A stretch of 64,000 bases of DNA from Spirochaetota bacterium. GTDB lineage: Bacteria; Spirochaetota; Spirochaetia; DTKZ01. The stretch covers positions 2,977 through 66,976 of the forward strand of contig JAOABU010000116.1 of the NCBI GenBank assembly GCA_026418195.1, written 5' to 3'. Position 1 is the first letter of the stretch; each line of letters opens with the position of its first letter. Shown in pieces: positions 4,372-19,284 of this stretch. The position numbers were made by a program, and so were the translations under genes. Below the pieces are notes generated by a model. That model had not been told where the DNA came from. It saw nothing but the letters and a program-made list of their open reading frames with translations, and did not search any database.

Positions 4372-5316
4372 TCATTCTTCGTACAGTTTGTCTTCGTCGA
4401 TTCCAGCTTTAGCCGCAACATCTTCTTCCTCGGGAGGAGCTTCTCGCTCTTCCGGTGTATAGTTTGAATAGTCTTCAGTTGTGAAACCCTCTTCCTCTTC
4501 TGCGGCTACCCCTGTACGTACGGCCAGAGGAATCCGTTCTTGCTCTTCGTCTTCGGAATAGCGAGCCCGAACAGCCTCTTCGTCGATGATGGGTTCTTCG
4601 TCTTCTTGATAAGATTCGATCACTTCTAGACCAATTTCATTATCCGCTTCGATTACCGCGTTAGATATGATCTGGGTGAATAAAGTGATGGAACGAATGG
4701 CATCATCATTCCCGGGAATGGGGTAGTCTATTCCTTCGGGGTTGCAGTTAGTGTCCACTACTGCTACGATTGGGATTTTCATTCGCTGAGCTTCTGCAAC
4801 GGCAATGGCTTCTTTCCGCGTGTCAATGATAAAAATGATCCCTGGAAGTTCCTTCATGTCCTTGATACCACCCAGGGTCTTCTCCAGTCTAGCCTTTTCT
4901 TTCATGAGAGCGGCTACTTCTTTCTTCGTCATCCCTTCGAAGCTGCCGTCTACTTCCATCTTCTCCAGCTTCTTTAATCGGAGTAAGGATTTCTTGATTG
5001 TGGCAAAGTTGGTAAGCATCCCTCCCAACCAGCGGTTATTCACGTAGAACATACCACAACGTTCCGCTTCCCTCTGGATGGCTCCCTGGGCTTGCTTTTT
5101 GGTACCTACAAATAGAACAGACTTTCCTTCTAGTACTGTCTTCCGCACCGCTTCGTAGGCTTCTTTGATTGCTGCGATGGTTTTTTGAAGATCGATGATG
5201 TGGATCCCATTCCGTTCAGCGAAGATAAACTTCTTCATACGGGGATCCCAGCGCTTGGTCTGATGCCCGAAATGCACTCCAGACTCAAGCAAATTTTTCA
5301 TGGTAACTACTGCCAA
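4372..5316 (-). CDS. rpsB: 30S ribosomal protein S2 with an acidic C-terminal extension of about 75 aa
   Basis: 314 aa. The S2 core ([13 protein letters not shown]..., [24 protein letters not shown]) is followed by a Glu/Asp-rich tail. An RBS complement (cctcct) lies at 5328..5333. Confidence 0.9.
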
Positions 5317-5390
5317 GTGTTCCTCCTCTACCCATACGTTTCGTATGGTCCTTCTCTAATTCTCGTTCGGATGATACCGACGGAAGATTT

Positions 5391-5987
5391 CTATCCATAG
5401 AACGGATAGTTGTTTCGCTTCAAGATGACATAAATCGAGCGAATTGGCAAGCCCATCACTGTGCTATAGTTGCCCCGGAGGGTTTCAACGAAACATGCAG
5501 CCCGTTGTTGGATCCGGTACCCTCCCGCAACACCTTGCCATTCCCCTGTATTGAGGTACCATCGAATCTCTTCCTCATCTAATGAGGAGAATCGAACCCA
5601 TGCAGTTTCCGAGGTGTAATCGTATCGATTCGTGTGTCGATCGAACAAAGCAACCCCTGTGATTACCCGATGGGACTTCCCCGATAGTAATCTTAAGAAC
5701 GTCTCGGCCTCTTCCCGATTTTTCGGTTTGCCAAGAATCCGTTTCCCACAGAGAACAAGGGTATCCGCACCGATGAACCACCGGGATCCTCTCACTAGGC
5801 GTTTCGTCAATATACTTTCGATCTTTCTTTTAGCTAGCGTACAGGCGAACTCATGGATATCTTCGGATCCATCCCAACTTTCATCGATCTCTTCCGCACA
5901 TACAATGAAGGGAATGCCCATTTGTTTGAGGAGTTCCTGACGTCTTGGGGAAGAGGAGGCAAGTACGACTGTATCCATGACGAGCAT
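5391..5987 (-). CDS. maf: Maf-like nucleoside triphosphate pyrophosphatase (septum formation protein Maf)
   Basis: Maf N-terminal motif VVLASSSPRRQELL. Start trimmed to the ATG at 5985..5987 (MLVMDTVVLASSSPRR); the ORF-track extension upstream is hydrophobic junk. An ATG at 5978 is an alternative start. Confidence 0.8.
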   Translation of the reverse strand: MLVMDTVVLASSSPRRQELLKQMGIPFIVCAEEIDESWDGSEDIHEFACTLAKRKIESILTKRLVRGSRWFIGADTLVLCGKRILGKPKNREEAETFLRLLSGKSHRVITGVALFDRHTNRYDYTSETAWVRFSSLDEEEIRWYLNTGEWQGVAGGYRIQQRAACFVETLRGNYSTVMGLPIRSIYVILKRNNYPFYG

Positions 5988-6042
5988 TGTACTGAAAGTG
6001 TAACAAATGGTACAGAAGGGAACTGTGCTTGTTCGGTAAAGT

Positions 6043-6843
6043 GTGGGTAATAAGAAGGAGAAGACGAATATGAAACGAATGATTGTAGAAATCGATGAAT
6101 CTCTTTGTAATGGATGCGGACTCTGCATCCCGAATTGCGCTGAGGGGGCCTTAAAGATTGTGGATGGAAAAGCAAGAATTGTCAGTGACCTATTCTGTGA
6201 CGGGCTAGGTGCCTGTATAGGACATTGTCCCCTAAATGCGATTCGAGTGGTAGAGAGGGAAGCGGAACCCTACGATGAATGGAGGGTAATGGAACGGGTA
6301 GTAAAGTCTGGGCCGTCTTTGATAAAAGAACATCTTAGGCACCTGTCAGAGCATGGACAACAAGAGTACCTCCGACAAGCTAAAGAGTTCCTTACGTTGT
6401 TCGGATATGAAGTTCCTCCTTTAGAGGAAACAAAGGAAACGCAGTCAAGAATTGAGCAGCCTCCTCTAAACCATCAGTGGCCTGTACAGCTTCATCTGGT
6501 GAATCCTGCCTCACCAACTTTTAAGAATGCTGACTTATTATTGGCGGCTGATTGCACGGCTTTCGTAGCAGAAGGTTTCCATAGAGACTTTCGAATAGGT
6601 AGAGTACTGGCGGTGGCTTGTCCTAAACTCGATTCTGGACAGGAGAGATACATAGAAAAAATTGTACAGTTCGTGGATCAAGCGATGATCCGTTCTATTA
6701 CTGTTCTCATCATGGAAGTGCCCTGCTGTGGTGGCCTCGTACGATTCGTTCAAGAGGCTTTAAGCAGAACTTCCAGGCAAATTCCCCTGAAAGTACAGGT
6801 GTTAAGTATCGATGGCAGCCTGATCCAGGAAGAAAATCTCTGA
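6043..6843 (+). CDS. 4Fe-4S dicluster ferredoxin-domain protein with a Cys-containing C-terminal domain
   Basis: 266 aa. Two CxxCxxCxxxCP-type cluster motifs (CNGCGLCIPNC, CDGLGACIGHCP), then a roughly 190-aa domain with ACPKLD...VPCCGG cysteines that may be FrhB/FdhB-C-like. Confidence 0.6.
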   Translation: MGNKKEKTNMKRMIVEIDESLCNGCGLCIPNCAEGALKIVDGKARIVSDLFCDGLGACIGHCPLNAIRVVEREAEPYDEWRVMERVVKSGPSLIKEHLRHLSEHGQQEYLRQAKEFLTLFGYEVPPLEETKETQSRIEQPPLNHQWPVQLHLVNPASPTFKNADLLLAADCTAFVAEGFHRDFRIGRVLAVACPKLDSGQERYIEKIVQFVDQAMIRSITVLIMEVPCCGGLVRFVQEALSRTSRQIPLKVQVLSIDGSLIQEENL

Positions 6844-7542: not shown

Positions 7543-9999
7543 TTACACTCCGGCGCGATCCCTTCTGTGCAGTTCCTCCAGGGTTTGGTTAGTTGTTGGT
7601 CGATAATCCTTCAGAGGAAGGATTCGTTCATGAATAGCATCGAGGATCCATTCTTTTTGGGGAAAAAAGTACTGTTCCATCTCATAAGCCGGTGTAATCC
7701 AATTACGGGAGCCTACAATTACCGGAGGTGCATCGAGGGAATCGAAAACGGTCTCGGTGATGCGAGATGCCATGGTATGAAGGAAACTGCCTCGTTCACA
7801 GGCATCGGAAGTAAGAAGTACTTTTCCAGTTTTTTGCACTGATTCATAGATCTTTTCATAGTTAAGTGGGTTAAGGAAGCGGGTATCGATCACTTCTGCT
7901 TCGATACCGAACCGGTGAGAAAGCTCCTCTACCGCTTCCAGTGCCCGATAAAGGGTAGCCCCAATCGTTATGATTGTAAGATCTTTTCCCTTCTTTCGTA
8001 GGGCTGGTTCTCCTTCAGGGACCTCATAGTACCCTTCCGGAACACCGCCTGGTTCGAAGAGTTCACCTATGTCGTACAACCTCTGGCTTTCAAAGAACAC
8101 CACAGGATCGCTTCCGTTCAGGGCTAGATTCATCATCCCCTTTGCATCGTAGGGAGTAGCAGGAAACATCACTTTTAATCCCGGAATATGGGCAACGATG
8201 CTAGACCAATCCTGTGAATGCTGGGCTCCGTACTTGCTTCCTACCGAGACCCGGAGGACTAAAGGCATTCGGAGAATACCAGCAGACATGCTCTGCCATT
8301 TTGACATTTGATTGAAAATCTCATCCCCTGCTCGTCCCATGAAATCACAGTACATCAGTTCAATGAGAGCTCGTCCCCCTGAAAGGGCATACCCTACGCC
8401 GGCTCCTACAATGGCTCCTTCGGAAATAGGCGTGTTGAACAGCCTAGGATAGGGGAGACATTCGGTTAGTCCCTGGTACACTCCAAACGCACCTCCCCAG
8501 TCGCGGTTCTCTTCCCCGAACGCCACGAGGGTGGGATCCCGATAGAATGCGTCCAGGATCGCTTCGAAAAGAGCTTCCCGGAAGGATAGAACTTTCATTT
8601 TCGGAAGGGGTTTCCCCTGGGCGTCAATAGCAGATCTGGATTTGGACTGTATCTTTTTCAATCGGGGATTCTCTTCTTTGGCGAGGAGGACGTCAGGTTT
8701 CCTGGAATCCCAGGCTGGAATTTTTAGGTTGGAAAACATCACTTTGCCAATGAACTCTGCATTACACCGCGGGGATTTAGAGAGGGGTACCACCAGTTGT
8801 ACCGTTTTTCGGATCTTTTCAATCACCTTACTGCCCATGGATTCTATCTCTTGGGCTGAGACAACCCTGTGTTGCTTAAGGTATTCCTGATAAGCTCGAA
8901 TACAATCTTCTCCTTCCCAGAGCTGAATCTCTTCTCGGGTGCGGTAACTAGATGCATCCGAAGGACTATGGCCAGAGAGGCGATATGTGATGGTATCTAG
9001 CAGCACAGGACCTTTGCCTTCTTCCAAAATTTTTCTTTTCCGTAGGATTGCATCGGCCACTGCGAGGGGATTGTATCCATCTACCCGTTCAGCATGCATA
9101 TTCTCTGGATTTACCCCTGCTCCTACGCGGGCCAGAATTTTAAATCCCATGGTCTCTCCATAGGTCTGACCCCCCATTCCATAGAAATTGTTAAAGAAGT
9201 TGAATAGGACCGGTGGAGCGCCTCCTGTTTCTTTGGGCCATAGAGTCCGATACTGATCCATGGCAGCCACCATCATTCCCTCCCATACTGGACCGCATCC
9301 CATCGAGGCATCTCCAATGTTTGCGATAACGATTCCCGGTTTCTGATTGATTCGTTTGAACAGGGCGGCCCCTACTGCAATATCGGCCGATCCTCCTACG
9401 ATCGCATTATTGGGCATGCTTCCAAAGGGGATGAAGAAGGCATGCATCGATCCCCCTAATCCCTTATTCACCCCGGTTTCCCTAGCAAAGATCTCTGCTA
9501 GCACTGCGTATAGGATAAAGTTCTCTGCTAGGTCCTTTGTATTTGTATAAGGTTCTTGTTCTACGACCCGTAGAATGGCCCCATCGAAATAGGATTTCAT
9601 CGTTCCTTCCAATTGCTGGTCTGACAGTTTCTCGATGGCTGAAAAGCATTTCGCAAGGATTTCACCATGACTGCGATGGCTGCCAAAAATAAAATCCACG
9701 GGGGAAAGGTTTACACATTGCCCCACTGCAGCAGATTCCTGCCCAATGGATAGATGAGCAGGTCCCGGGTGGTTGTACTCTACTTCGTAGTATTTCCCCT
9801 TGGTCTTGAACTCATTCAGCATGGTCTCGAATTCCCGGATGACCAGCATGTGATAAAGGATCTTCTTCAATCCTTCATTCCCATAAAGGTTCTTCTCTGC
9901 TTGGATATCCGGAGTGTATTGATTTAGGGGAATGTGTTCGATGGCAAGAATCCCTTTTCTTCGAACTTCTTTTGGATCAATAAGTATAGACTTAGGCAT
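7543..9999 (-). CDS. 2-oxo-acid dehydrogenase E1 component, fused alpha (TPP-binding) and beta (transketolase-like) subunits
   Basis: 818 aa. The N-terminal half carries E1-alpha features (IREFE..., GGSMHAF.., [22 protein letters not shown]). A Lys/Pro-rich linker is followed by an E1-beta-like half ending with transketolase C-terminal-like sequence. Confidence 0.85.
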
Positions 10000-10035
10000 A
10001 GGGTACCTCTCTTTCCTGAAGTTCTAATAGGTGTC

Positions 10036-11331
10036 TTAAGATCCCGCGAAAAGGAGATCTATATTTGCAGTCGCTTCCACAAGAGCTTTTAAAAATCTTG
10101 AAGCGGGAGCTCCGTCCACCGCTTGATGGTCTACTGTTAAAGACAATCCTATGTGGGGATAGAACTTTACCTCTTCTCCCTCCATTACGGGCTGAGGTTG
10201 GATGGTGCCTACTCCTAAAATAGCCACTTGAGGAGCATTCAGGATGGGGGTGAAGTACTGTATTCCAAAGCTTCCTAAGTTGGTTACCGTAAAGGTCCCC
10301 CCGGATAAATCATCGGTAGAGATTTTTCCCTCCATACACGCTTGGGCTAACCGTTTCGCCTCCCTGCTGAGGGCTGCGAGGGAAAGGGTTTGGGCATTTC
10401 GGATTACAGGTACTAGCAAGCCTTTGGGAGTATCTACCGCCACCCCTAGATGTACGGTGGAGAATCGTTGGATCGTGTCCTTCAGCCAGTAAGCGTTCAG
10501 TTCTGGAAAACGGGGAAGGGTTTTGGCCACCACGAACAGGATCAAATCGTTGATAGTAATATCCTGGTACCCATAGGCTTCCGGTGCTTCTTTGAACCGT
10601 TTCCGCCATCGTAATAGAGCTCGAGCATCTGCAATGGCGTGGAGAGTATACTGCGCATGAGATTGTAAAGATTCCATCATTCGTTGAGAAATCACCTTCC
10701 GCGTCCCTGTAACGGGAACTGAGATACCGCCTTCCTTAGTTTCCCCCATCACGGGCGTTGTGGTTTGTGAAGGCTCCCAAGAGGTGGAGAGTCGAGCTGC
10801 TTCTTCAGAAATACTCCGTAGCGATTGTTGTTTCTCTTCGATAGCTCTACGCACGTCCCGTTCGATGATTCTGCCTTTGGGGCCAGTACCAACCAAGATT
10901 TCCGGTTGAATACCATTCTGGCGAGCGAGCCTCATGGCACGGGGAGAAATACGTAAGGGTTTCCGATCTGGTGCAGAACTTTGATATTGGAGACCTGGAT
11001 CCTGCGACGTGGTTGAAGCAGTCTGCATGGTTTGCTGTTCTTTCGAGGAGATTGGGGGAGGTGACTTGTCTGGAGTACCCGGGAGTTGTTCTCCCGCTTC
11101 TCCTATATATGCGATGGGGGTAAGAACCGGCACATCCGCACCTTCAGAGAATAACACTTTCAGTAAGATTCCATCTGTAGGTGCTTCGACGGAGAAAACA
11201 GCTTTGTCCGTTTCCACCTCACAAAGGATATCTCCTTTCTGAACCTTCTCTCCCTCTTTCTTCTTCCATTCCAGGATTACACAGCTTTCCACTGTCTGCC
11301 CTTGCCTGGGCATCAATACTTCTGTTGCCAT
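10036..11331 (-). CDS. dihydrolipoamide acyltransferase (E2) of a 2-oxo-acid dehydrogenase complex
   Basis: 431 aa. Lipoyl domain with CEVETDKAVFSVEAPTDG (lipoyl-Lys), a Pro/Ser/Gln-rich linker with a peripheral subunit-binding region, and a catalytic domain with the DHQAVDGAPASRFL motif (His-Asp). Confidence 0.85.
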   Translation of the reverse strand: MATEVLMPRQGQTVESCVILEWKKKEGEKVQKGDILCEVETDKAVFSVEAPTDGILLKVLFSEGADVPVLTPIAYIGEAGEQLPGTPDKSPPPISSKEQQTMQTASTTSQDPGLQYQSSAPDRKPLRISPRAMRLARQNGIQPEILVGTGPKGRIIERDVRRAIEEKQQSLRSISEEAARLSTSWEPSQTTTPVMGETKEGGISVPVTGTRKVISQRMMESLQSHAQYTLHAIADARALLRWRKRFKEAPEAYGYQDITINDLILFVVAKTLPRFPELNAYWLKDTIQRFSTVHLGVAVDTPKGLLVPVIRNAQTLSLAALSREAKRLAQACMEGKISTDDLSGGTFTVTNLGSFGIQYFTPILNAPQVAILGVGTIQPQPVMEGEEVKFYPHIGLSLTVDHQAVDGAPASRFLKALVEATANIDLLFAGS

Positions 11332-11377
11332 ACCTTCTCCTTACATATTTGTGCCTTTCTGGCAATTTCGTGTACTG

Positions 11378-12133
11378 CTATACGCGGTCTACTTTTAACC
11401 CTTCCGCAATTAATGCTTCCAATGCTTGTTCAGGAAGTTCTTTATCAGTAATGATTCGATGGATGCGATGGAGGGGTAGAACATGAACGAAGCCTACCTT
11501 CCCGAATTTGGTACTGTCTGCTACCAGAATCGTTTCCTCTGCTTGAGCAGCCATCCGTTTTACGATTTCAGCCCCTTCCACTAGGTAAGTGGTAAGACCT
11601 TTTTCCAGAGTGAACCCATCAGTACCTACAAAGGCTCGTCTTACATGGAACCGTTCTAGTTCCGATAGGGCGATGGGGCCTACGAAGGACTCGGTTTGAG
11701 GACGGAACTCACCCCCTACTAAGGTTAGCCGCAGGGATGGATTGGCTCGAGCATAGGGAAGAAGTAGGGAATTGTTACTTACGATAGTGATATCCCGTTT
11801 GCCCAAAAGGTATCGAGCAATGAGGGCCGTTGTTGAACCGGCCTCGATCATAATGGTATCCCCATCCTCCACAATAGAAGCGGCTGCTTTGGCGATCCGG
11901 TTCTTTTCGTCAGTCCGTTTCCGTATCTGTTCCATCATGGTAGGGTGAAAAGTAGGAAGTGCACCGCCCCAGGTCCTGAGAACATAACCCTTTTCGGACA
12001 AAGCATTTAGGATTGATCGTATAGTCACTGCCGAAACTTTGAGGGTTTTTCCCATTTCAGCGATACCCATTCCAGGATTCTCACGGAGGAGTTCCAACAG
12101 GTCCTTTTCCTTTTCAGTCAGATTGATTGGCAT
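11378..12133 (-). CDS. DeoR-family transcriptional regulator
   Basis: 251 aa. N-terminal HTH (LLELLRENPGMGIAEMGKTLKVSAVTIRSILNAL) followed by a DeoR-C sugar-phosphate-binding-like domain. It is divergent from kamA and 46 nt upstream of the E2 gene. Confidence 0.85.
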   Translation of the reverse strand: MPINLTEKEKDLLELLRENPGMGIAEMGKTLKVSAVTIRSILNALSEKGYVLRTWGGALPTFHPTMMEQIRKRTDEKNRIAKAAASIVEDGDTIMIEAGSTTALIARYLLGKRDITIVSNNSLLLPYARANPSLRLTLVGGEFRPQTESFVGPIALSELERFHVRRAFVGTDGFTLEKGLTTYLVEGAEIVKRMAAQAEETILVADSTKFGKVGFVHVLPLHRIHRIITDKELPEQALEALIAEGLKVDRV

Positions 12134-12283
12134 GTCAATATTGCTTTCGATTTGTTTTTATTTTATTGTTTATTATATTTCGATTTTAGACTTTTTGTCA
12201 ATCGAATACGAAAAGTACTACACAAGGATGTATATATTTTCATAATTTTTTTCATTGATTTAATCCGAGCCTCTATAGAGTAA

Positions 12284-12312
12284 TTGACAAAGGTACGAAG
12301 AGTGAGTATTAG
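12284..12312 (+). promoter_or_regulatory. candidate sigma70-type promoter for the kamA operon
   Basis: TTGACA (12284..12289), a 17-nt spacer, then TATTAG (12307..12312), in a markedly AT-rich divergent intergenic region (12134..12345). A strong RBS AAGGAG lies 8 nt before the ATG at 12346. Confidence 0.35.
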
Positions 12313-12345
12313 CAGTATCAACACTGTAATGAAGGAGCACTTCAG

Positions 12346-13677
12346 ATGATGCAGAAATCGATCCCCATAGAAGAGGATCCCCCCAGTCTTTCGGAGGACC
12401 CTCCGGAGCCTAGTGCGGCGTTGAGGGAGGGCCTCCAATCTTCCCATCTATCGTCTTCGGACCTTCCGAATAGTTCGGATGCATCTACTATCCCCATCAA
12501 ACGGCTACGTGTTCTAAAACCCCAACGGGAGCAAAGTGGAGATCTCAAAGGGTTCAGGCAGAGGTTCTATCCCCATGTCACTAAAGCCGAATGGAACGAT
12601 TGGCGTTGGCAATTAGCCCATCGAATTACCTCATACGAAGAATTGGGGAAAATCCTCTATCTGTCCGATCACGAAACGAGGATTTTCCAGGAAAGTGGCA
12701 ATGGGTTACCCCTGTCTATCACACCCTACTACGCGAGTCTATTGGATCCGAAGAACCCCCTTCAGGCCCTTAGACGTTCTGTAGTACCGGTCTTTTATGA
12801 GAAGGTGCTCAGTGCTGGAGAGAACGTTGATCCTTTGGGAGAAGACCATGATTCTCCTGTTCCCGGTCTGGTACATCGGTATCCTGATAGAGTCTTGTTT
12901 CTGGCTACCTATGCATGCTCCACCTACTGCCGGTACTGTACCCGATCGCGGGCTGTAGGACATCAGGAGACAGGAGATATTCGTAGTCGTTGGGAGCAGG
13001 CCATCCAGTATATTCAGGAACATTCCGAAGTTCGGGATGTACTCATTTCGGGGGGAGATCCTTTAACCCTTCCCGATGAGTCCATCGATTATATCCTGTC
13101 GAGGGTAAGCGCCATTCCCCATGTGGAGTTCGTTCGGATTGGCACAAAGGTGCCTGCAGTTTTACCCCAACGGATTACCCGATCCCTCCTAAAAGTCCTG
13201 AAAAAATACAGACCTCTGTGGATGAGTATCCACGCTACTCATCCTGATGAGCTGACTCCAGAAATGAGGGCTGCATGCAACCGCTTAGCCGATGCAGGGA
13301 TACCGTTGGGCAGTCAAACGGTTCTCCTTGCGGGGATCAACGACTCTGTGGAAACCTTACGGAAACTCTTCCATGGTCTCCTGACGGTACGGGTCCGGCC
13401 CTATTACCTCTATCAGTGTGATCCTATTCCTGGTTCGGGACATTTCCGAACCTCGGTGAAAAAGGCTTTGGAAATCATGCAAGGTCTTCGAGGGTTCACC
13501 ACGGGGTATGCAGTACCGACCTATGTGATCGACGCACCTGGAGGAGGGGGCAAGATTCCACTACTACCCGAGTATGTGGTAGGGTACGAGAACGGTGACC
13601 TTCTCTTACGAAATTTCGAAGGGAATACGTATCGGTACCCTGATCCCGGAGCAGCAGAGGGAAACTGTATCCGATGA
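12346..13677 (+). CDS. kamA: lysine 2,3-aminomutase (radical SAM, KamA family) with an N-terminal acidic Ser/Pro-rich extension of about 60 aa
   Basis: 443 aa. Radical-SAM CSTYCRYCTRS (CxxxCxxC), the KamA N-terminal motif AEWNDWRWQLAHRI, and the KamA C-terminal region. This is the first gene after the AT-rich promoter region. Confidence 0.85.
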   Translation: MMQKSIPIEEDPPSLSEDPPEPSAALREGLQSSHLSSSDLPNSSDASTIPIKRLRVLKPQREQSGDLKGFRQRFYPHVTKAEWNDWRWQLAHRITSYEELGKILYLSDHETRIFQESGNGLPLSITPYYASLLDPKNPLQALRRSVVPVFYEKVLSAGENVDPLGEDHDSPVPGLVHRYPDRVLFLATYACSTYCRYCTRSRAVGHQETGDIRSRWEQAIQYIQEHSEVRDVLISGGDPLTLPDESIDYILSRVSAIPHVEFVRIGTKVPAVLPQRITRSLLKVLKKYRPLWMSIHATHPDELTPEMRAACNRLADAGIPLGSQTVLLAGINDSVETLRKLFHGLLTVRVRPYYLYQCDPIPGSGHFRTSVKKALEIMQGLRGFTTGYAVPTYVIDAPGGGGKIPLLPEYVVGYENGDLLLRNFEGNTYRYPDPGAAEGNCIR

Positions 13678-14654
13678 GAACCATCGGTCTTACCTATGAT
13701 TTGAAGGATGACTATCTCGCCGCTGGCTTCTCGACGGAAGAGGCGGCGGAGTTTGATTCCCCGCAAACGATTCAAGCTCTAGAAGATACGATAAGATCTC
13801 TTGGGTTCCAGGTGGATCGGATTGGGAACCTACGGGTGTTGATGAGACGGTTGCTAGCCGGAGATCGGTGGGATCTGGTGTTCAATATTGCCGAAGGAGC
13901 TCGAGGTCCAGGCAGGGAGTCCGAGGTTCCCTGCCTGTTGGAAGCCTTTCGGATACCCTATACCTTTTCCGATCCTATGGTGCTTGCCCTCTGCCTGCAC
14001 AAAGGTATGACGAAACATGTAATCCGGGACAATGGTATTCCTACCTCGGATTTCATCGTCTTACAACAGGCGAAAGAAGTTGAGAAGGTAAGACTTCCAT
14101 TTCCCCTTTTTGTGAAACCGGTGGCAGAAGGAACTGGAAAGGGGGTATCCACCCACTCGAAGGTGGAGAGCGCCGAAACTCTTCGAAGGACAGTAACCCA
14201 ATTACTGGAGAAGTTCCAGCAACCCGTGTTGGTAGAACGGTTTCTCCCTGGGAAAGAGTACACGGTAGGAATTATAGGCACCGGTTCTGAGGCAGAGGTG
14301 ATCGGAGGGATGGAGATTCGGTATGGGAGTTCTGCCGAGGGAGAGATCTATTCCTATTCGAACAAAGCTCAGTACGAGGGCCGGATTTCTTACCACCCCA
14401 TCGAAGGGCCTGCGAAGGAAAAGGTTTACCAGATAGCATTGGATGCCTATCGGGTTCTTTGTTGTAGGGATGGGGGAAGGGTAGATATTCGGGAGGATGA
14501 GAGGGGAGAACCTCAATTCATGGAGATCAACCCTCTTCCCGGTCTTCATCCGGTGGATTCGGATCTACCGATCCTTGCCCGTCTCCACGGCATGCCTTAT
14601 ACTCGTCTGATCGAAAGAATCCTAACCTCCGCTTGTAAAAGGAACGGGCTCTAG
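13674..14654 (+). CDS. ATP-grasp ligase of the D-alanine--D-alanine ligase (Ddl) family, substrate unknown
   Basis: 326 aa. Ddl-like N-domain (FNIAEGARGPGRESEVPCLLEAFRIPYTFSDPMVLALCLHK), a central ATP-grasp fold (LFVKPVAEGTGKGVS...VLVERFLPGKEYTVGIIG) and a C-terminal MEINPLPGL metal/ATP loop. The start overlaps the kamA stop (ATGA), implying translational coupling. Confidence 0.75.
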   Translation: MRTIGLTYDLKDDYLAAGFSTEEAAEFDSPQTIQALEDTIRSLGFQVDRIGNLRVLMRRLLAGDRWDLVFNIAEGARGPGRESEVPCLLEAFRIPYTFSDPMVLALCLHKGMTKHVIRDNGIPTSDFIVLQQAKEVEKVRLPFPLFVKPVAEGTGKGVSTHSKVESAETLRRTVTQLLEKFQQPVLVERFLPGKEYTVGIIGTGSEAEVIGGMEIRYGSSAEGEIYSYSNKAQYEGRISYHPIEGPAKEKVYQIALDAYRVLCCRDGGRVDIREDERGEPQFMEINPLPGLHPVDSDLPILARLHGMPYTRLIERILTSACKRNGL

Positions 14655-14661
14655 AGGCGGA

Positions 14662-16890
14662 ATGAACCGTTCTGAACCTCAACTATTGACCTTTCAAATT
14701 ACCCAGGCAGAACGGCTTCGTGCTCGAAGGCTTTTCAACGTTTTTTCAGTTTTCAACACCTTTTCCTACCTATTGCTCAGTGGCAATATCCTTTCCCTCT
14801 ATCTTCTTCGACTGGGGGCCAGCAGTACCCTCATCGGGATCATTTCTTCTTTTGCCTACGTTTCTTTCTTTTTCATGCTTCCAGGCCGGGTCATTGTCCG
14901 AAAGGTGGGGGTTTCAAGATTGTTTGCTTACTGCTGGACCGCCCGGTACCTGGCGGCTATCCCCTTGGTCCTATCCCCTTTCTTCATCCTGAGGGGACAG
15001 GGTAGGGTTGGTTTTTCACTGGTAGTTCTAGGAGCTCTTGGATTCCAGGTGATGAGAGGGATAGGTTTGGTAAGCAACAGTCCCATCATGGGGGATCTTT
15101 CAGAGGGGAAGGATAGAGGAGATTACCTATCTCGAATTCAGATCATTACCCACACGGTTTCCATTGTAACGGGTCTTCTGATGGCTTTTTCCTTAGGTAC
15201 CGGACAAGCTTCTCTATTACGGTATTCCTTTTTGATCCTTCTGGGAATCCTATTGGGTCTAGTGGGGTGTATGTTCCTATTCAAACTTCCTCTGCACCTT
15301 GGGGGAGGATTCCCTATGGAAGAGGGGGTGTTCACTTCGATCAAACGTGCACTGAGAGAGGCTTCTTTTCTCCGCTTCATAAAGGTGTTTGCGCTAGTGA
15401 TGGTAGTAGCGGGGATTACTCGTCCCTTTCTGGTTCTCTACTCTGCCGATGTGTACCAAGTGAGTGACAGTACAAACATGTACCTAACCGTAGTGGGAAG
15501 CCTAGGGGCTCTTACCATGGGAATGGTTGCCCAACTTCTTCTTGATCGAGTGGGACCCAAACCCATGCTGATCTTCTTTACCTTCATTTTTTTTCTTAGC
15601 ATGTTTCCCATCGTTCTGGCGATTCCATTCCATGGATGGGGAGAGTACGTGTATCTAGGGATTCTGTTCTTTTTCTTTCATTTTGGAACACTGGGACAGG
15701 AGAACGCTTCTCAAACCTACTTTTACGGAGTAGTGCGGCCCCAGGATCAGATGGATCTTGGAATTCTTTACTATCTGATTTTTGGGTTGGGAGGTACCAT
15801 AGGTTCTGCTCTAGGCGGCGTGATACTGGATGGAATCCACTCCCTTGGATTAGGGGATGTAGCCTCGTACCGTATTTTTTTTGGGGGAGGTATGTTCCTC
15901 ACCTTCGTCGCTTTACTCTGGATGTCCCGTCTCTCACCCATAGGCTCGGTCGGCGTTCGGAATGCCTTAACCATCATGTTTTCTGCTCGAGACATAAGGG
16001 CCATCCTTCTCCTAAATAAACTGGATCGTACCACTTCCATAGAGGCTGAGAGACGGGTGATACGGGAAATGGGTGAAACCCCCTCCTCTGTATCATTGGA
16101 AGGTCTCCTGCAGCGACTGAGATCGCCTAGTTTTATCATCCGAAGAGAGGCCCTGCAGGCCTTAGAGACCCACGAACCGGATGATCGGGTAGTAGAAGCT
16201 CTATTACATGAATTGAAGACAGGAGAGTTCACCACTGCGTACTTAGCGGCAAGGATTTTGGGTAAGTATAGGATTCATAGGGGGATACCCCTTCTTCGGT
16301 TGTCCCTTCATTCTGAGGACTACCTTCTGGCAGCTGAAAGTATGGTAGCTCTGGCTCGGCTTCAGGATGCTCAGAGCAAAGGAAAGATCGAGGCTTTCCT
16401 AAAAGTGGCAAAGAACCCCTTTCTCATCATTCATGGTGCAGAAGCGGTGAAGATCTATCAGGATCCTTCTTCTATCAACCTGCTACTGGAACTGGCAGAA
16501 CGACCGGAGCTTAACGATTCGGTCCGTAACCATGTAATTTTAGGAATTGCTGGACTCTTAAGAATGGAGGATTGGTTCTATCCGATCTTTACTGTCTTTT
16601 TAGACGAACCCTTCAAAGGGATAGATTTTCTCCTAGATCCCTTGTTAGCTATTCCTAAAGAGAGGGGTCTTCCTTACAGTAGAGAGCAGCTGATGGATGC
16701 CTTCTACTCCATCCCTCGGGATCCCTTGCAGTTTGGAACCTTTGCCAGGGAAATAGGGGGGAGTTGGGAAACCCTTCAATCCTTGCCCATCCCCTTCTAT
16801 AAAGAATCTCTCTATAGGATCCCCGCGACAGCCTTCCTCTTAGGAGGAATTATCGTCTACTATACCCTCATAAGCAAGGATCAGGAATAG
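14662..16890 (+). CDS. MFS-type transporter (about 12 TM) fused to a C-terminal cytoplasmic HEAT/PBS-lyase-like repeat domain
   Basis: 742 aa. Residues 1 to about 430 are serial hydrophobic helices with an MFS-like layout. Residues from about 440 to 742 are soluble, with repeated helical motifs (RREALQALETHEPDDRVVEALLHEL / AYLAARILGKY / LLAAESMVALARL) resembling HEAT-like repeats. It lies 7 nt after the ATP-grasp gene. Confidence 0.65.
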   Translation: MNRSEPQLLTFQITQAERLRARRLFNVFSVFNTFSYLLLSGNILSLYLLRLGASSTLIGIISSFAYVSFFFMLPGRVIVRKVGVSRLFAYCWTARYLAAIPLVLSPFFILRGQGRVGFSLVVLGALGFQVMRGIGLVSNSPIMGDLSEGKDRGDYLSRIQIITHTVSIVTGLLMAFSLGTGQASLLRYSFLILLGILLGLVGCMFLFKLPLHLGGGFPMEEGVFTSIKRALREASFLRFIKVFALVMVVAGITRPFLVLYSADVYQVSDSTNMYLTVVGSLGALTMGMVAQLLLDRVGPKPMLIFFTFIFFLSMFPIVLAIPFHGWGEYVYLGILFFFFHFGTLGQENASQTYFYGVVRPQDQMDLGILYYLIFGLGGTIGSALGGVILDGIHSLGLGDVASYRIFFGGGMFLTFVALLWMSRLSPIGSVGVRNALTIMFSARDIRAILLLNKLDRTTSIEAERRVIREMGETPSSVSLEGLLQRLRSPSFIIRREALQALETHEPDDRVVEALLHELKTGEFTTAYLAARILGKYRIHRGIPLLRLSLHSEDYLLAAESMVALARLQDAQSKGKIEAFLKVAKNPFLIIHGAEAVKIYQDPSSINLLLELAERPELNDSVRNHVILGIAGLLRMEDWFYPIFTVFLDEPFKGIDFLLDPLLAIPKERGLPYSREQLMDAFYSIPRDPLQFGTFAREIGGSWETLQSLPIPFYKESLYRIPATAFLLGGIIVYYTLISKDQE

Positions 16891-18665
16891 TATGCTTCCA
16901 ACGAGTAGAGGAGACTCTCGAAAAGACGTATCGTTTCTCGCATGGGTTCTGGGGTACGTAAATCTACTCCTGCTCGTGCGAGGGAATCTAATGGAAAGAG
17001 GGAACCGCCTGTCTTTAGAAACGAAAGGTAACGGTTCCGCTCTTCTACCCCTCCCTCCAACACCTGTTTCGAGAGAGCGATGGCAGCGGCCAGTCCAGTG
17101 GCATACTTATAGACATAGAAAGACCGATAAAAATGAGGAATCCTCAATCCCTCTACTTCATCCTCCTCGTCAAGGGTAACCGCATCACCGAAGTATGTTT
17201 CGAGTAGATGGCGGTACAGTCTTCGGATGACCTCTACGGTAAGAGGTTTTCCCTGTTCTACCGATGCATGACACTGAAGTTCGAACTCCGCAAACATGGT
17301 TTGTCGGAAGAAGGTCCCAATGATATCATCGATGTGTTTCACTGTCAGATAACGCTTGAACTCTTCCGATGAGCTGGTCTTTACGAAATGATGCATGAGA
17401 AGTTGTTCATTGAAGGTAGAAGCAGTCTCGGCTTCAACAATAGAGTAGTTGTAATGGGGAAAGGGGTTGTTCCGGGCAGAATAGTAGGAATGCATCGAAT
17501 GTCCCGCCTCGTGGGCTAGAGTGAACACATCCCGTAAAAGATCTTCCTTGAAGTTCATCAGGATATAGGGATCCCCAGTATAGGTACCAGCAGAAAAGGC
17601 TCCTGACCGTTTTCCTTTGTTCTCGTACCTATCTACCCATCCTCCCAGAAGTCCTGTTTTCAGGATGGAACAGTACTCTTCTCCCAGGGGTTCCAGAGAT
17701 GCGACAACCCGTTCTACCGCCTCCTCATAGGTATGCCGCACGCGAATGTCTGGTACGAGGGGAACCTTGGTATCCCATAACCTCAAGGTGGGAAGTCCCA
17801 AGATCTTTTTTCTCAACCTATAGTACCGATGAAGCACAGGAAGCCCTTCATGTACTGTTTGTATAAGAGAGTGGTACACCTGGGTAGGCACATCATCGGG
17901 GAAAAGTTTAGCATGAAGGGCCGAGGGAAAGTTTCGAATCCGCGCAATATAGATGTCCAAATGAACACTACCCCCATAGAGACTAGCCAAAGTGTTCTTA
18001 TACTGAGTAAAAAGCCTCATGTACTGCTTGTAGGCTTTTTCCCGAAGAGCACGGTCGGGATTCATCAGGAATGACTGAAAGGTAGAATGGGTCAGCGGTT
18101 TTTCCCCCTCCGGAGTAGTCAGTGTCCCAAAATCAAAGTCTACGTCTGTAAGGGCTGCAAACGCTTTTTCTGCGGTTTGATTCGCTTCCTGTTGAAGAGC
18201 GAGAAGTCTTTCCTCTGAAGGGGAAAGAGTATGGGGTTTATAGCGGAGAATTTTCTGGATCATGATCCGGTAGTCCGGGAGTTCCTTGAGAATCTGTTCC
18301 ATCAGTTGGGGAGGAATAGCTTGGATTTCTGGCTTTAAATATCCTGCCAAAGCCTCCGCTTGCGTGGAAACTTGAAGGAACCTGCCCCAGCGATCCTGGT
18401 TCGTTGAATCGCCTCCATCTTCGCTTAACCTTAAATGGGCATAGTAGGCCAATCGCTCTTCTAGGATTCCTAGCTCTGTCATGAAATCGAGACAAGCTTT
18501 AACCGACCCTACCGAAGAGCTGAGAGTTCCTTGAAACTGAGGAATCTTTTGAACAAGTTCCCTGTATCGAAGGAGCCCTTCTTCCCACGCCTCTTCACTT
18601 ACGAATAGGGAAGAAAGATTCCAGCAATACGCGGGGTTTACCTCTTTTCGTTCAGGTACTTTCAT
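16881..18665 (-). CDS. pepF: oligoendopeptidase F (M3B family zinc peptidase)
   Basis: 594 aa. HEAGHSMH zinc-binding HExxH motif with a downstream Glu, at PepF length. Confidence 0.85.
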   Translation of the reverse strand: MKVPERKEVNPAYCWNLSSLFVSEEAWEEGLLRYRELVQKIPQFQGTLSSSVGSVKACLDFMTELGILEERLAYYAHLRLSEDGGDSTNQDRWGRFLQVSTQAEALAGYLKPEIQAIPPQLMEQILKELPDYRIMIQKILRYKPHTLSPSEERLLALQQEANQTAEKAFAALTDVDFDFGTLTTPEGEKPLTHSTFQSFLMNPDRALREKAYKQYMRLFTQYKNTLASLYGGSVHLDIYIARIRNFPSALHAKLFPDDVPTQVYHSLIQTVHEGLPVLHRYYRLRKKILGLPTLRLWDTKVPLVPDIRVRHTYEEAVERVVASLEPLGEEYCSILKTGLLGGWVDRYENKGKRSGAFSAGTYTGDPYILMNFKEDLLRDVFTLAHEAGHSMHSYYSARNNPFPHYNYSIVEAETASTFNEQLLMHHFVKTSSSEEFKRYLTVKHIDDIIGTFFRQTMFAEFELQCHASVEQGKPLTVEVIRRLYRHLLETYFGDAVTLDEEDEVEGLRIPHFYRSFYVYKYATGLAAAIALSKQVLEGGVEERNRYLSFLKTGGSLFPLDSLARAGVDLRTPEPMRETIRLFESLLYSLEAYYS

Positions 18666-19284
18666 AGGGATTCTTCTCCAGATGGTTTTCTAGGATGGAT
18701 CGGATGGCTCGGGCTGCTAACCCACGATGAGAAACTTGGTTCTTTTCTTCTAGGCTTAGTTCGGCTACTGTTCTCCCTTTCCAGGGAAGGTACAGAAGGG
18801 GATCGTATCCAAAACCTCCTGTTCCTCTGGGGTTAAAAGCAATTTCCCCTTCCAAGGTTTCCTGGGCTACAAACCACCGTTCGGGATGGATCAATAACAC
18901 CATGCAACAGATGAAATAGGCCTTTCTATCTGTAATCGAACGCATCCGTTCTAGTAAAAGATGATGTTGCTCCTCATAAGTGGGTTTCCGTCCCAACTCT
19001 TTCTCCCCAAATCGAGCAGAGTAGACTCCCGGTTCCCCTTTCAGTGCAGGAATGGATAGGCCTGAATCATCTGCAATGATGGGGTAGGTTGATCGTCCTG
19101 CATCTAGGAGCAGTTTATGTAGGGTTCTCGCTTTTCCCAGGGAATTCTCTAGGTAGGTAGATCCAATCTCTTCATGATGGTAGGAAACTCCTAGATCCTG
19201 TGGAATCAGAAGGGTATGCCCATGAAAAAGGGCAGAGAGCTCTTCCTGTTTATGAGGATTCATTGATGCTAAAACTATGGTCAT
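18652..19284 (-). CDS. rdgB: non-canonical purine NTP pyrophosphatase (RdgB/Ham1, dITP/XTP pyrophosphatase)
   Basis: 210 aa. MTIVLASMNPHKQEEL N-terminus and FGYDPLLYLP motif of the Ham1 family. Confidence 0.85.
   Translation of the reverse strand: MTIVLASMNPHKQEELSALFHGHTLLIPQDLGVSYHHEEIGSTYLENSLGKARTLHKLLLDAGRSTYPIIADDSGLSIPALKGEPGVYSARFGEKELGRKPTYEEQHHLLLERMRSITDRKAYFICCMVLLIHPERWFVAQETLEGEIAFNPRGTGGFGYDPLLYLPWKGRTVAELSLEEKNQVSHRGLAARAIRSILENHLEKNPYEST

Follow-up and report, generated by a model that had tools for sequence, protein, structure and literature searches.

What does a lysine 2,3-aminomutase (LAM) make when its gene is joined to that of a ligase with the fold of D-Ala-D-Ala ligases (Ddl) and to that of an unusual permease? 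The window, a 64-kb (64,000-nucleotide) stretch of spirochaetal DNA, carries three such genes in a row on the plus strand: a KamA-family lysine 2,3-aminomutase of 443 aa (12346..13677), an ATP-grasp ligase of 326 aa, hereafter g1 (13674..14654), and a 742-aa fusion of an MFS permease with a HEAT-repeat domain (MFS-HEAT, 14662..16890). A DeoR-family regulator lies upstream on the minus strand (11378..12133; DeoRC 170.8 bits plus HTH_DeoR in Pfam/NCBIfam). These four open reading frames match exactly the coordinates given in a preliminary description, which had proposed a system for synthesis and export of a beta-lysine peptide. The junctions it reported can also be read directly from the sequence: kamA and g1 share an ATGA start/stop overlap (13674-13677), and the 7-nt gap between g1 and the permease gene (14655-14661) contains a GAGG-like ribosome-binding site. 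The stop of the permease gene overlaps the end of a convergent pepF by 10 nt. On balance we lean towards an operon that makes and moves a small beta-lysine amide, a reading that retains the lysine-type aminomutase, the non-Ddl ligase and the conserved KamA-g1 pair of the preliminary description and abandons its general three-gene system and its DeoR partnership.

The aminomutase carries the claimed radical-SAM motif CSTYCRYC and has Radical_SAM and LAM_C domains (Pfam). In NCBIfam it passes the KamA subfamily model TIGR00238 (355 bits, cutoff 199) and stays below the cutoffs of the AblA (472.6 against 525.4), glutamate, arginine and EpmB (254.6 against 369.3) equivalogs. It matches the LAM structure 2A5H with E 5e-127, conserving the Fe-S cysteines C125/C129/C132, R134, D293, D330 and the PLP lysine K337. 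All of these are invariant in the 65 orthologues compared, and none of the 65 retains Cys268 or the CxCxxC tail. Judged from these patterns, KamA is a distinct LAM subfamily with the radical-SAM/PLP core and an N-terminal extension, lacking the Zn site and the C-terminal tail. The extension bears an acidic-proline motif, EEDPPSLSEDPPEP in the window (aa 9-22, 12370..12411, plus strand), whose pattern [E/D]-x-E-P-P-[G/S] is matched strictly by 55/65 orthologues and by close variants in the rest, and which was not found in the C. subterminale LAM. Every lysine-specific residue is kept, which predicts a lysine-type LAM, as the preliminary description had it. A glutamate aminomutase is ruled out by failure of that equivalog. 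The family membership of the enzyme, and the fact that beta-lysine is a substrate in both pathways (PMC2821294, and partly general background), might instead suggest an enzyme of the EpmB type that serves EF-P modification, or one that opens lysine fermentation. We find this very improbable: besides the low EpmB score, the LAM_C region missing from YjeK is present, efp and epmA are absent from the 64-kb window and do not recur across the loci compared below, kamDE, kdd, kce and kal genes lie near none of these loci, and Syntrophus carries a separate efp-linked yjeK. The possibility, raised at the outset, that kamA is an EpmB orthologue can thus be set aside.

The ligase g1 resembles Ddl enzymes without scoring as one, and its structure model shows a confident Ddl fold. 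Ddls are its top hits in both sequence and structure, and no second ddl was found in the 64-kb window, which could be taken to mean a housekeeping D-Ala-D-Ala ligase that sits beside kamA by chance. This is hard to credit, since Pfam detects Dala_Dala_lig_C (104 bits) and not the Ddl N-terminal domain, the score of 164 bits misses even the lowest Ddl cutoff, 243 bits in the most permissive model, and falls far below all others, and identity to Ddls is about 27%. The equivalents of K97, K144, E180, E187, K215, R255, D257, E270 and N272 are invariant in the g1 family, and with this full catalytic set g1 should be active. The substrate positions, in contrast, depart from Ddl: S-D stands where Ddl has S281-L282, and Y216 is missing from the omega loop, changes that are invariant across the family. 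Thus g1, which the preliminary description had set apart from the housekeeping enzyme, has the Ddl fold but is not a D-Ala-D-Ala ligase; it differs from DdlA, DdlB and the Van ligases in sequence, in its second-substrate site and in its partners, which are KamA rather than mur genes.

Other genomes also speak for a joint function. In a set of 80 loci that spans more than 10 phyla, 75 have KamA immediately before g1 (median gap 65 nt), as a co-directional and often closely spaced pair, an adjacency far beyond chance; g1 proteins are about 55-60% identical across phyla, and the family numbers at least 558 species-level genome matches and, at E<=1e-30, 795 clusters of 50% identity. The pair occurs in Spirochaetes, deltaproteobacteria, Planctomycetes, Bacteroidota, Clostridia, Acidobacteriota, Lentisphaerae, Sumerlaeota, Bdellovibrionota and alpha- and gammaproteobacteria. 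The usual cluster, whose further members the preliminary description had missed, adds to KamA and g1 a further ATP-grasp paralogue, g2 (73/80), and a small GNAT (50/80) of about 165 aa, which does not match the AblB model and is best matched by a RimI-like one (39.5 bits); an HDAC-like deacetylase is present in 12/80. This recurrent tie to KamA and to a paralogue (73-75 of the 80 loci), with no mur context, further opposes a housekeeping Ddl. Several of the partners are fused: g1 to g2 (L036 and many representatives of 640-730 aa, e.g. P0148 with 3 members from 4 sources), g2 to GNAT (L052, L055, L064) and HDAC to GNAT (L037, L048). KamA is fused to g1 in one protein, P0159; this is a singleton record, its linker resembles translated spacer, and the fusion may be an artefact. 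The roles that the preliminary description offered for the product, compatible solute or signalling molecule, are candidate ones; the loci come from digesters, lake sediment and groundwater, habitats that lend no particular support to an osmolyte role.

Taken together, a lysine-type LAM, a non-Ddl ligase and a conserved pair are best read as a route in which ATP drives formation of an amide on or with beta-lysine. We found no characterised member of the KamA-g1 family in the literature; this pair, present in hundreds of bacterial species, probably makes a beta-lysine-containing amide. KamA would convert L-lysine to beta-lysine by radical-SAM/PLP chemistry, a well-supported step; g1, translationally coupled to it, would then use ATP to build, through an acyl-phosphate, an amide bond between beta-lysine, either as acyl donor or as amine, and a partner that is an amine or carboxylate common in cells or else another molecule of (beta-)lysine. 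While gene linkage supports the participation of g1, its chemistry is deduced. In most lineages g2 and the GNAT, with or without the HDAC-like deacetylase, would extend, N-acetylate or deacetylate the product.

Such a combination has partial parallels. Small N-acetyl peptides serve as solutes or signals, made by Ngg (the bacterial NAGGN synthase) and by the mammalian NAAG synthetases. These routes, like the usual cluster, combine an ATP-grasp ligase with a GNAT, sometimes fused, as g2 and GNAT are in three loci, but their ligases are RimK-type, use Glu, Gln or Asp and work without an aminomutase. AblA/AblB (KamA/YodP), which make N-epsilon-acetyl-beta-lysine, share with the usual cluster a LAM, a GNAT and a small beta-lysine derivative; they differ in that the window lacks a GNAT, the cluster GNAT is not AblB-like, two ATP-grasp ligases intervene and the window KamA lies below the AblA cutoff. 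The preliminary description held that ATP-grasp ligases play no part in beta-lysine-type routes, which overlooks three precedents. In the first, the product of the radical-SAM lysine mutase PylB is joined to the N-epsilon of lysine by the ATP-grasp enzyme PylC in an ATP-dependent reaction (PMC11467909); here too a radical-SAM rearrangement of lysine is followed by a carboxylate-amine bond from an adjacently encoded ligase, and our proposal for g1 is made by analogy with it. The second is the Pbo island of Pseudomonas syringae pv. phaseolicola, with pboE (MFS), pboF (LAM-like), pboG (ATP-grasp) and pboI (MFS), where an MFS transporter, a LAM-like radical-SAM enzyme and an ATP-grasp ligase share an operon predicted to make a secondary metabolite or signal (PMC8473136), as the same three kinds of protein do in the window; however, PboG models on the L-amino-acid ligase BL00235 rather than on Ddl, and the island is horizontally acquired and includes NRPS/PKS parts and a 2OG dioxygenase, whereas ours is a chromosomal cassette of two to five genes.

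In the third precedent, a lichen-associated Nostoc has an operon of LAM, a SET protein and 'D-Ala-D-Ala ligase 3' (Ddl3) with a MATE pump nearby (Gagunashvili & Andresson 2018, PMC5987646, text S3, Figs S14-S15). As in the window, a LAM precedes a Ddl-like ATP-grasp enzyme with no recognisable Ddl N-terminal Pfam domain and an efflux pump lies beside, although the pump is of the MATE type rather than MFS-HEAT, a SET methyltransferase is part of the operon, and Ddl3 is likened to g1 by description. From these genes its authors predicted transfer of a beta-lysine moiety to an unnamed acceptor followed by excretion (PMC5987646), so that the exported conjugate of the preliminary description is essentially an idea already proposed in 2018. 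As an alternative they suggested a peptidoglycan precursor or stem peptide as target of Ddl3 (PMC5987646). By extension, g1 (and g2) could load beta-lysine onto a macromolecule, whether such a precursor or a carboxylate on a protein; KamA might even offer its own conserved acidic N-terminal tail in the manner of the LysW carrier. We regard this as decidedly unlikely: ATP-grasp enzymes in general share this similarity of fold, no mur, fem, efp or small carrier-protein gene is a recurrent neighbour across the 80 loci, and the GNAT, the HDAC-like partners and the transporter suit small-molecule chemistry better.

How does the permease fit a pathway that makes a small amide? Neither g2 nor a GNAT occurs in the 64-kb window, the part of the genome covered; its cluster is thus a reduced variant (KamA + g1), and g2 and the GNAT may lie elsewhere in the genome. 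In a neighbour-joining tree without support values, g2 is secondarily lost in the clusters that lack it, through three independent reductions, each with a membrane protein directly after: the window lineage, L038 (MarC/LysE-like) and L022 (bestrophin-like). The fusion protein (MFS_1 40.9 bits, HEAT_2 38.9 bits) has hydrophobic segments at aa 43-424 and 719-739, and its HEAT domain is a candidate cytoplasmic one. Its family of 27 clusters is spirochaetal without exception. KamA-g1 is linked to it in L001-L004, L086 and L087, down to about 49-50% transporter identity (L086, L087), with short or overlapping junctions (overlapping in L086) and differing flanks; the homologues at 35-43% stand alone, and KamA-g1 is missing beside it in L081-L085, L088 and L089. 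The triad therefore does recur, but in one spirochaete subclade, not generally as the preliminary description had supposed. In a Treponema MAG (L081) the transporter lies near pepF and the pathway is absent, so KamA-g1 may be an insertion beside a resident gene. This feeds a possible, if rather doubtful, alternative: the beta-lysine amide made by KamA-g1 stays inside the cell, for instance as a compatible solute or polycation, and MFS-HEAT is a functionally unrelated resident, or an importer of lysine or a precursor, co-transcribed through an accident of insertion. None of the 73 g2-containing clusters has MFS-HEAT, as this would predict, and an internal promoter-like site precedes the MFS gene (14575-14603), though at chance level. 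Against it stand the tight junctions in the window and in L086, the persistence of the triad in L087 amid wholly different flanks and the membrane protein that follows all three reductions. We thus prefer a pathway in which the window lineage, having lost g2 and the GNAT, coupled KamA-g1 to the permease, a candidate exporter (or importer) that would export, or possibly import, the unacetylated product, a role suggested by operon structure and by adjacency within this subclade.

Control of the operon would start in the spacer between the DeoR gene and kamA (12134..12345), which is AT-rich as described (GC 0.34 over 12050-12349 versus about 0.48-0.52 in the flanks) and has no Rfam match. It holds a candidate plus-strand promoter for kamA, TTGACA (12284-12289) and TATTAG (12307-12312) spaced by 17 nt, an AAGGAG Shine-Dalgarno (12331-12336, plus strand) 9 nt before the kamA ATG, and, for the DeoR gene, a perfect minus-strand TTGACA-18-TATAAT (12201->12172); a 9-nt inverted repeat (12194-12202 / 12283-12291) spans both -35 boxes. 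The regulator itself does not consistently accompany the operon, contrary to what had been assumed: it is present only in L001-L004, where in L004 an additional MFS gene stands between it and kamA, and is absent upstream of the triad in L086 and L087. Its gene is co-directional with the downstream genes, which it may head, for E2 (46-nt gap) and a fused E1 (36-nt gap) of a 2-oxoacid dehydrogenase, and DeoR is most likely the regulator of this adjoining E2/E1 operon, outside the kamA system.

The four genes at the centre of the region were found at the positions assigned to them in the preliminary description and with the same domain content: a DeoR-family regulator (11378..12133, - strand, 251 aa) and, on the + strand, a KamA-family enzyme (12346..13677, 443 aa), an ATP-grasp protein that we call g1 (13674..14654, 326 aa) and an MFS-HEAT protein (14662..16890, 742 aa). 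The tight junctions described there can also be read in the sequence: the kamA stop and the g1 start overlap as ATGA at 13674-13677, and the 7-nt spacer between g1 and the MFS-HEAT ATG (14655-14661) holds a GAGG-like ribosome-binding site. The MFS-HEAT gene and pepF converge, with a 10-nt overlap at the MFS-HEAT stop. Upstream of kamA, the 212-nt spacer is AT-rich as claimed (GC 0.34 versus ~0.5 in the flanks); it carries a perfect sigma-70 consensus oriented to the DeoR gene and a candidate promoter facing kamA (TTGACA-17-TATTAG), plus an AAGGAG Shine-Dalgarno sequence. A search of 11000-17500 for a riboswitch or other RNA element near kamA gave no Rfam match at E<=1. The window flanks consist of chromosomal housekeeping genes (rpsB-tsf-frr-uppS-cdsA-dxr), and PADLOC gave no meaningful matches to anti-phage defence. 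The DNA comes from a spirochaete MAG (P0001, 100% identity), and an exact look-up of the g1 sequence returned no record.

Judged by its residues, the window KamA is a lysine-type (basic-substrate) 2,3-aminomutase, because the cluster motif and the substrate- and cofactor-binding positions are all kept, and are invariant in the 65 orthologues drawn from the related loci. It matches the Clostridium subterminale lysine 2,3-aminomutase (LAM; structure 2A5H) at E 5e-127; its CSTYCRYC aligns with C125/C129/C132 of the CxxxCxxC radical-SAM motif (65/65), and the PLP lysine K337, the carboxylate-binding R134 and the epsilon-ammonium-binding D293 and D330 are likewise present (65/65). The KamA/LAM family model TIGR00238 is passed (355.1 bits, cutoff 199.2) and the AblA-type equivalog TIGR03820 is not reached (472.6 bits, cutoff 525.4). 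A glutamate 2,3-aminomutase was considered and rejected, the score against TIGR04368 being 413.4 bits for a cutoff of 650 and both D293 and D330 being retained; work by Ruzicka and Frey in 2007 reportedly found Lys/Asn in place of D293/D330 in that enzyme. EpmB/YjeK, the orthology that the preliminary description had named as fatal to its own reading, was rejected as well: the protein scores 254.6 bits, short of the 369.3 cutoff, LAM_C is present and the window holds no efp, the absence of the LAM C-terminal region and linkage to efp/epmA being the marks of EpmB/YjeK that we used (PMC2821294).

The enzyme nevertheless belongs to a subfamily of its own, distinct from AblA, which has an N-terminal extension and no C-terminal tail. 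The extension covers ~70 aa (12346-12560 in the window, aa 1-~70), with a variable linker before the LAM core, and bears a conserved acidic-proline motif, [E/D]-x-E-P-P-[G/S], at 12370-12411 (window version EEDPPSLSEDPPEP), which is absent from clostridial LAM. At the other end, the protein stops ~8 aa past LAM residue 368. The structural Zn site of the clostridial enzyme, which we take to consist of Cys268 and the C-terminal CxCxxC in 2A5H, is absent: S, D, N or E occupies position 268 and the CxCxxC tail is missing, each in 65/65 orthologues. The lack of these residues and the early end of the protein would imply a different oligomer interface in this subfamily.

The partner of KamA is an ATP-grasp enzyme with a Ddl-like fold that is not a Ddl, as had been proposed. 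While g1 shows the ATP-grasp fold with its ATP- and Mg2+-binding residues, it falls below the cutoffs of all 25 listed Ddl/Van models (top score 164.4, cutoff 243), shares ~27% identity with solved Ddls and matches only Dala_Dala_lig_C in Pfam, no Ddl N-terminal domain being detected. Since the ATP/Mg2+ and acyl-phosphate residues are all invariant, g1 should be an active ligase. The D-Ala-binding positions are altered: relative to DdlB, S150 has become Thr, Y216 is without a counterpart in an omega loop shorter than in Ddl, and L282 has become Asp, each invariantly in 25/25, so that the S281-L282 pair of the second-D-Ala site reads as an invariant S296-D297. The loss of E15 was dropped as a distinguishing mark, because although E15 aligns to A25, an invariant E26 adjoins it. 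Net charge and the composition of invariant residues were uninformative on the substrate of g1. The 64-kb window contains no second ddl, and no mur genes adjoin the cluster.

KamA and g1 form a conserved, co-transcribed-looking pair in which the catalytic residues of both enzymes are kept. Scanning genomes for the family gave at least 558 species-level matches; we analysed the best 80 of them, taking neighbourhood counts from tblastn-based tables. These loci span Spirochaetes, many deltaproteobacterial lineages, Planctomycetes, Bacteroidota, Clostridia, Acidobacteriota, Lentisphaerae, Sumerlaeota, Bdellovibrionota and alpha- and gammaproteobacteria. The KamA-ligase-transporter triad, whose conservation across genomes the preliminary description had made a touchstone, holds in part: a KamA orthologue (54-96% identity) lies on the same strand immediately 5' of g1 in 75/80 of the best loci, at a median gap of 65 nt, while the MFS-HEAT partner is lineage-restricted, occurring like DeoR, PepF and E2 in 4/80, the closest spirochaete loci only. 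The usual cluster is larger than was recognised there. Immediately 3' of g1, 73 of these 80 loci carry g2, a second, divergent ATP-grasp paralogue; a GNAT of ~165 aa is present in 50 and a GNAT-HDAC-like deacetylase in 12. Fusions bind the cluster components together: g1-g2 in L036 and in many HMMER representatives of 640-730 aa (P0148-P0158, with P0148 itself found in four source databases), g2-GNAT in L052, L055 and L064, and HDAC-GNAT in L037 and L048. A single KamA-g1 fusion (P0159, 746 aa) may be an artefact; it comes from one contig and its linker resembles spacer. By exhaustive HMMER search at E<=1e-30 the g1 family comprises 795 clusters at 50% identity; no plasmid-borne homologue with curated annotation was found at E<=1e-40. 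In L053 (13282-15229) and ~10 other deltaproteobacterial clusters, a sigma-54-dependent response regulator (~470 aa) is encoded just 5' of kamA. The same upstream position in these loci also holds a conserved 85-aa protein with an acidic C-terminus (...YEVLEE), which has no Pfam or NCBIfam match.

Among the cluster enzymes the window retains KamA and g1 only, and neither g2, a cluster-type GNAT nor efp/EF-P occurs within the 64 kb. In a neighbour-joining tree rooted on g2 and carrying no support values, the spirochaete loci without g2 form one monophyletic subclade lying among lineages that have it, and two further g2-less tips, L022 (Planctomycetales) and L038 (UASB270), lie apart from it; this topology therefore suggests that g2 was lost independently at least three times. 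All three g2-less groups have a membrane-protein gene immediately 3' of g1. In L038 it encodes a MarC family protein with LysE-like similarity (9098-9742), plus a CDF transporter; in L022 a bestrophin-like protein (9132-9908); and in the spirochaetes the MFS-HEAT protein, a member of the MFS by its MFS_1 score (40.9 bits, cutoff 33.4), with hydrophobic segments across aa 43-424. The MFS-HEAT family counts 27 clusters, every one spirochaetal. Down to ~49-50% transporter identity the triad is kept, with overlapping or short junctions, even when the flanks are unrelated (L086, L087); transporters at 35-43% identity were found without KamA-g1. Two triad loci, L086 (4833-5087) and L087 (8232-8498), carry a short ORF (84-88 aa, without a Pfam match) that overlaps or abuts the MFS-HEAT 3' end. 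The window, in which pepF runs over the MFS-HEAT stop, shows no evident counterpart. Both the window (16881-19284, - strand) and L086 (5548-7943) have pepF (oligoendopeptidase F), followed by a Ham1/RdgB-like NTP pyrophosphatase gene, in synteny with MFS-HEAT. Because pepF also lies near an MFS-HEAT transporter in a Treponema MAG without KamA-g1 (L081, 1395-3200), the arrangement suggests that KamA-g1 was inserted into an older MFS-HEAT/pepF neighbourhood.

The regulatory part of the initial proposal found little support in the comparison. Although the regulator has DeoR-family domains, its pairing with kamA is confined to the closest loci (L001-L004), is interrupted in L004 by an extra MFS_1_like permease gene (5251-6501), and is missing in L086 and L087 where the triad persists. 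On the other side of DeoR, immediately 3' and co-directional with it (7543-11331, - strand), lie genes for a lipoyl-E2 (431 aa) and a fused E1 alpha/beta 2-oxoacid dehydrogenase (818 aa), spaced by 46 nt before E2 and 36 nt before E1; an E3 gene was not seen beside them in the window. Being absent from L086/L087 and co-directional with E2 and the fused E1, DeoR is more likely the regulator of the E2/E1 operon.

What, then, might the pair make? The product of LAM is (3S)-beta-lysine; amide formation by ATP-grasp enzymes proceeds via acyl-phosphates. Beta-lysine is known to be acetylated, fermented, attached to EF-P or built into antibiotics by NRPS. The core of the preliminary interpretation, beta-lysine handed to a non-Ddl ATP-grasp ligase, stands, with DeoR probably not a partner and the transporter link restricted to one lineage. 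We infer that g1 would form an amide between beta-lysine, acting as either the acyl donor or the amine, and a common metabolite or another (beta-)lysine. A cationic partner would be compatible with the additional invariant Asp of the second-substrate site. Where g2 is present, as in most lineages, it could then add another unit and the GNAT/HDAC pair acetylate and deacetylate the product, whereas in the window lineage the MFS-HEAT permease would handle the unacetylated g1 product, exporting or importing it; the product may serve as a solute, a signal, a metallophore or an antimicrobial. Extended to the whole family, a tentative and rather doubtful proposal is that KamA-g1(-g2-GNAT) produces a so far unknown family of beta-lysine amides or oligopeptides, N-acetylated in the majority of lineages and widespread in anaerobes of >10 phyla, the stripped-down spirochaete form making a free dipeptide-like product secreted through its dedicated MFS-HEAT to act in signalling, as a metallophore or as an antimicrobial. 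More boldly, the conserved acidic EPP[G/S] tail of the KamA subfamily might be a LysW-like tether built into the enzyme, or a place where the ATP-grasp ligases dock.

This is not unprecedented: a beta-lysine conjugate has already been floated for an operon of lichen-associated Nostoc, LAM-SET-'Ddl3' with a MATE pump, which is the closest prior description (PMC5987646). The window resembles that operon in combining LAM, a Ddl-like ligase without the N-terminal Pfam domain, and a pump, but has no SET gene, and Ddl3 and g1 are likened by description only. In the Pbo island of P. syringae, too, genes for an MFS transporter, a LAM-like enzyme and an ATP-grasp ligase share an operon, part of a predicted secondary-metabolite or signal pathway (PMC8473136). 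Literature searches on aminomutase/KamA with ATP-grasp, and on beta-lysine with ligase, returned no characterised member, the only relevant items being PMC8473136 and the supplement of PMC5987646. Mechanistically, the nearest precedent for KamA and g1 is PylB/PylC, a radical-SAM lysine mutase and an ATP-grasp ligase acting at N-epsilon of lysine (PMC11467909). PylC was rejected as a relative of g1 and is kept as an analogy only; the combination of a PylC-family ligase, a PylB methylornithine synthase and PylD was not found here.

The window cluster is a reduced variant of a widespread, putative biosynthetic cassette, worth experiment though it introduces no new principle; what is new is how widely the family occurs, how its clusters are usually built, and a clean test system. 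That a conserved aminomutase-ligase pair occurs in several hundred species or more, most of them uncultured anaerobes, suggests that a further beta-lysine metabolite or modification exists which has yet to be described; if so, Ddl-fold ligases would gain a new substrate class. With two genes sufficing, the two-enzyme spirochaete form is the simplest system for product discovery, and finding the product would explain the role of hundreds of genes wrongly annotated as 'D-alanine--D-alanine ligase'. The family extends to odd architectures among the HMMER representatives: a leucine-rich-repeat N-terminus joined to a g1-like ATP-grasp domain (P0251, 980 aa), and a CxxCxxCC zinc/iron-chelating domain joined to g1 (P0165, 503 aa).
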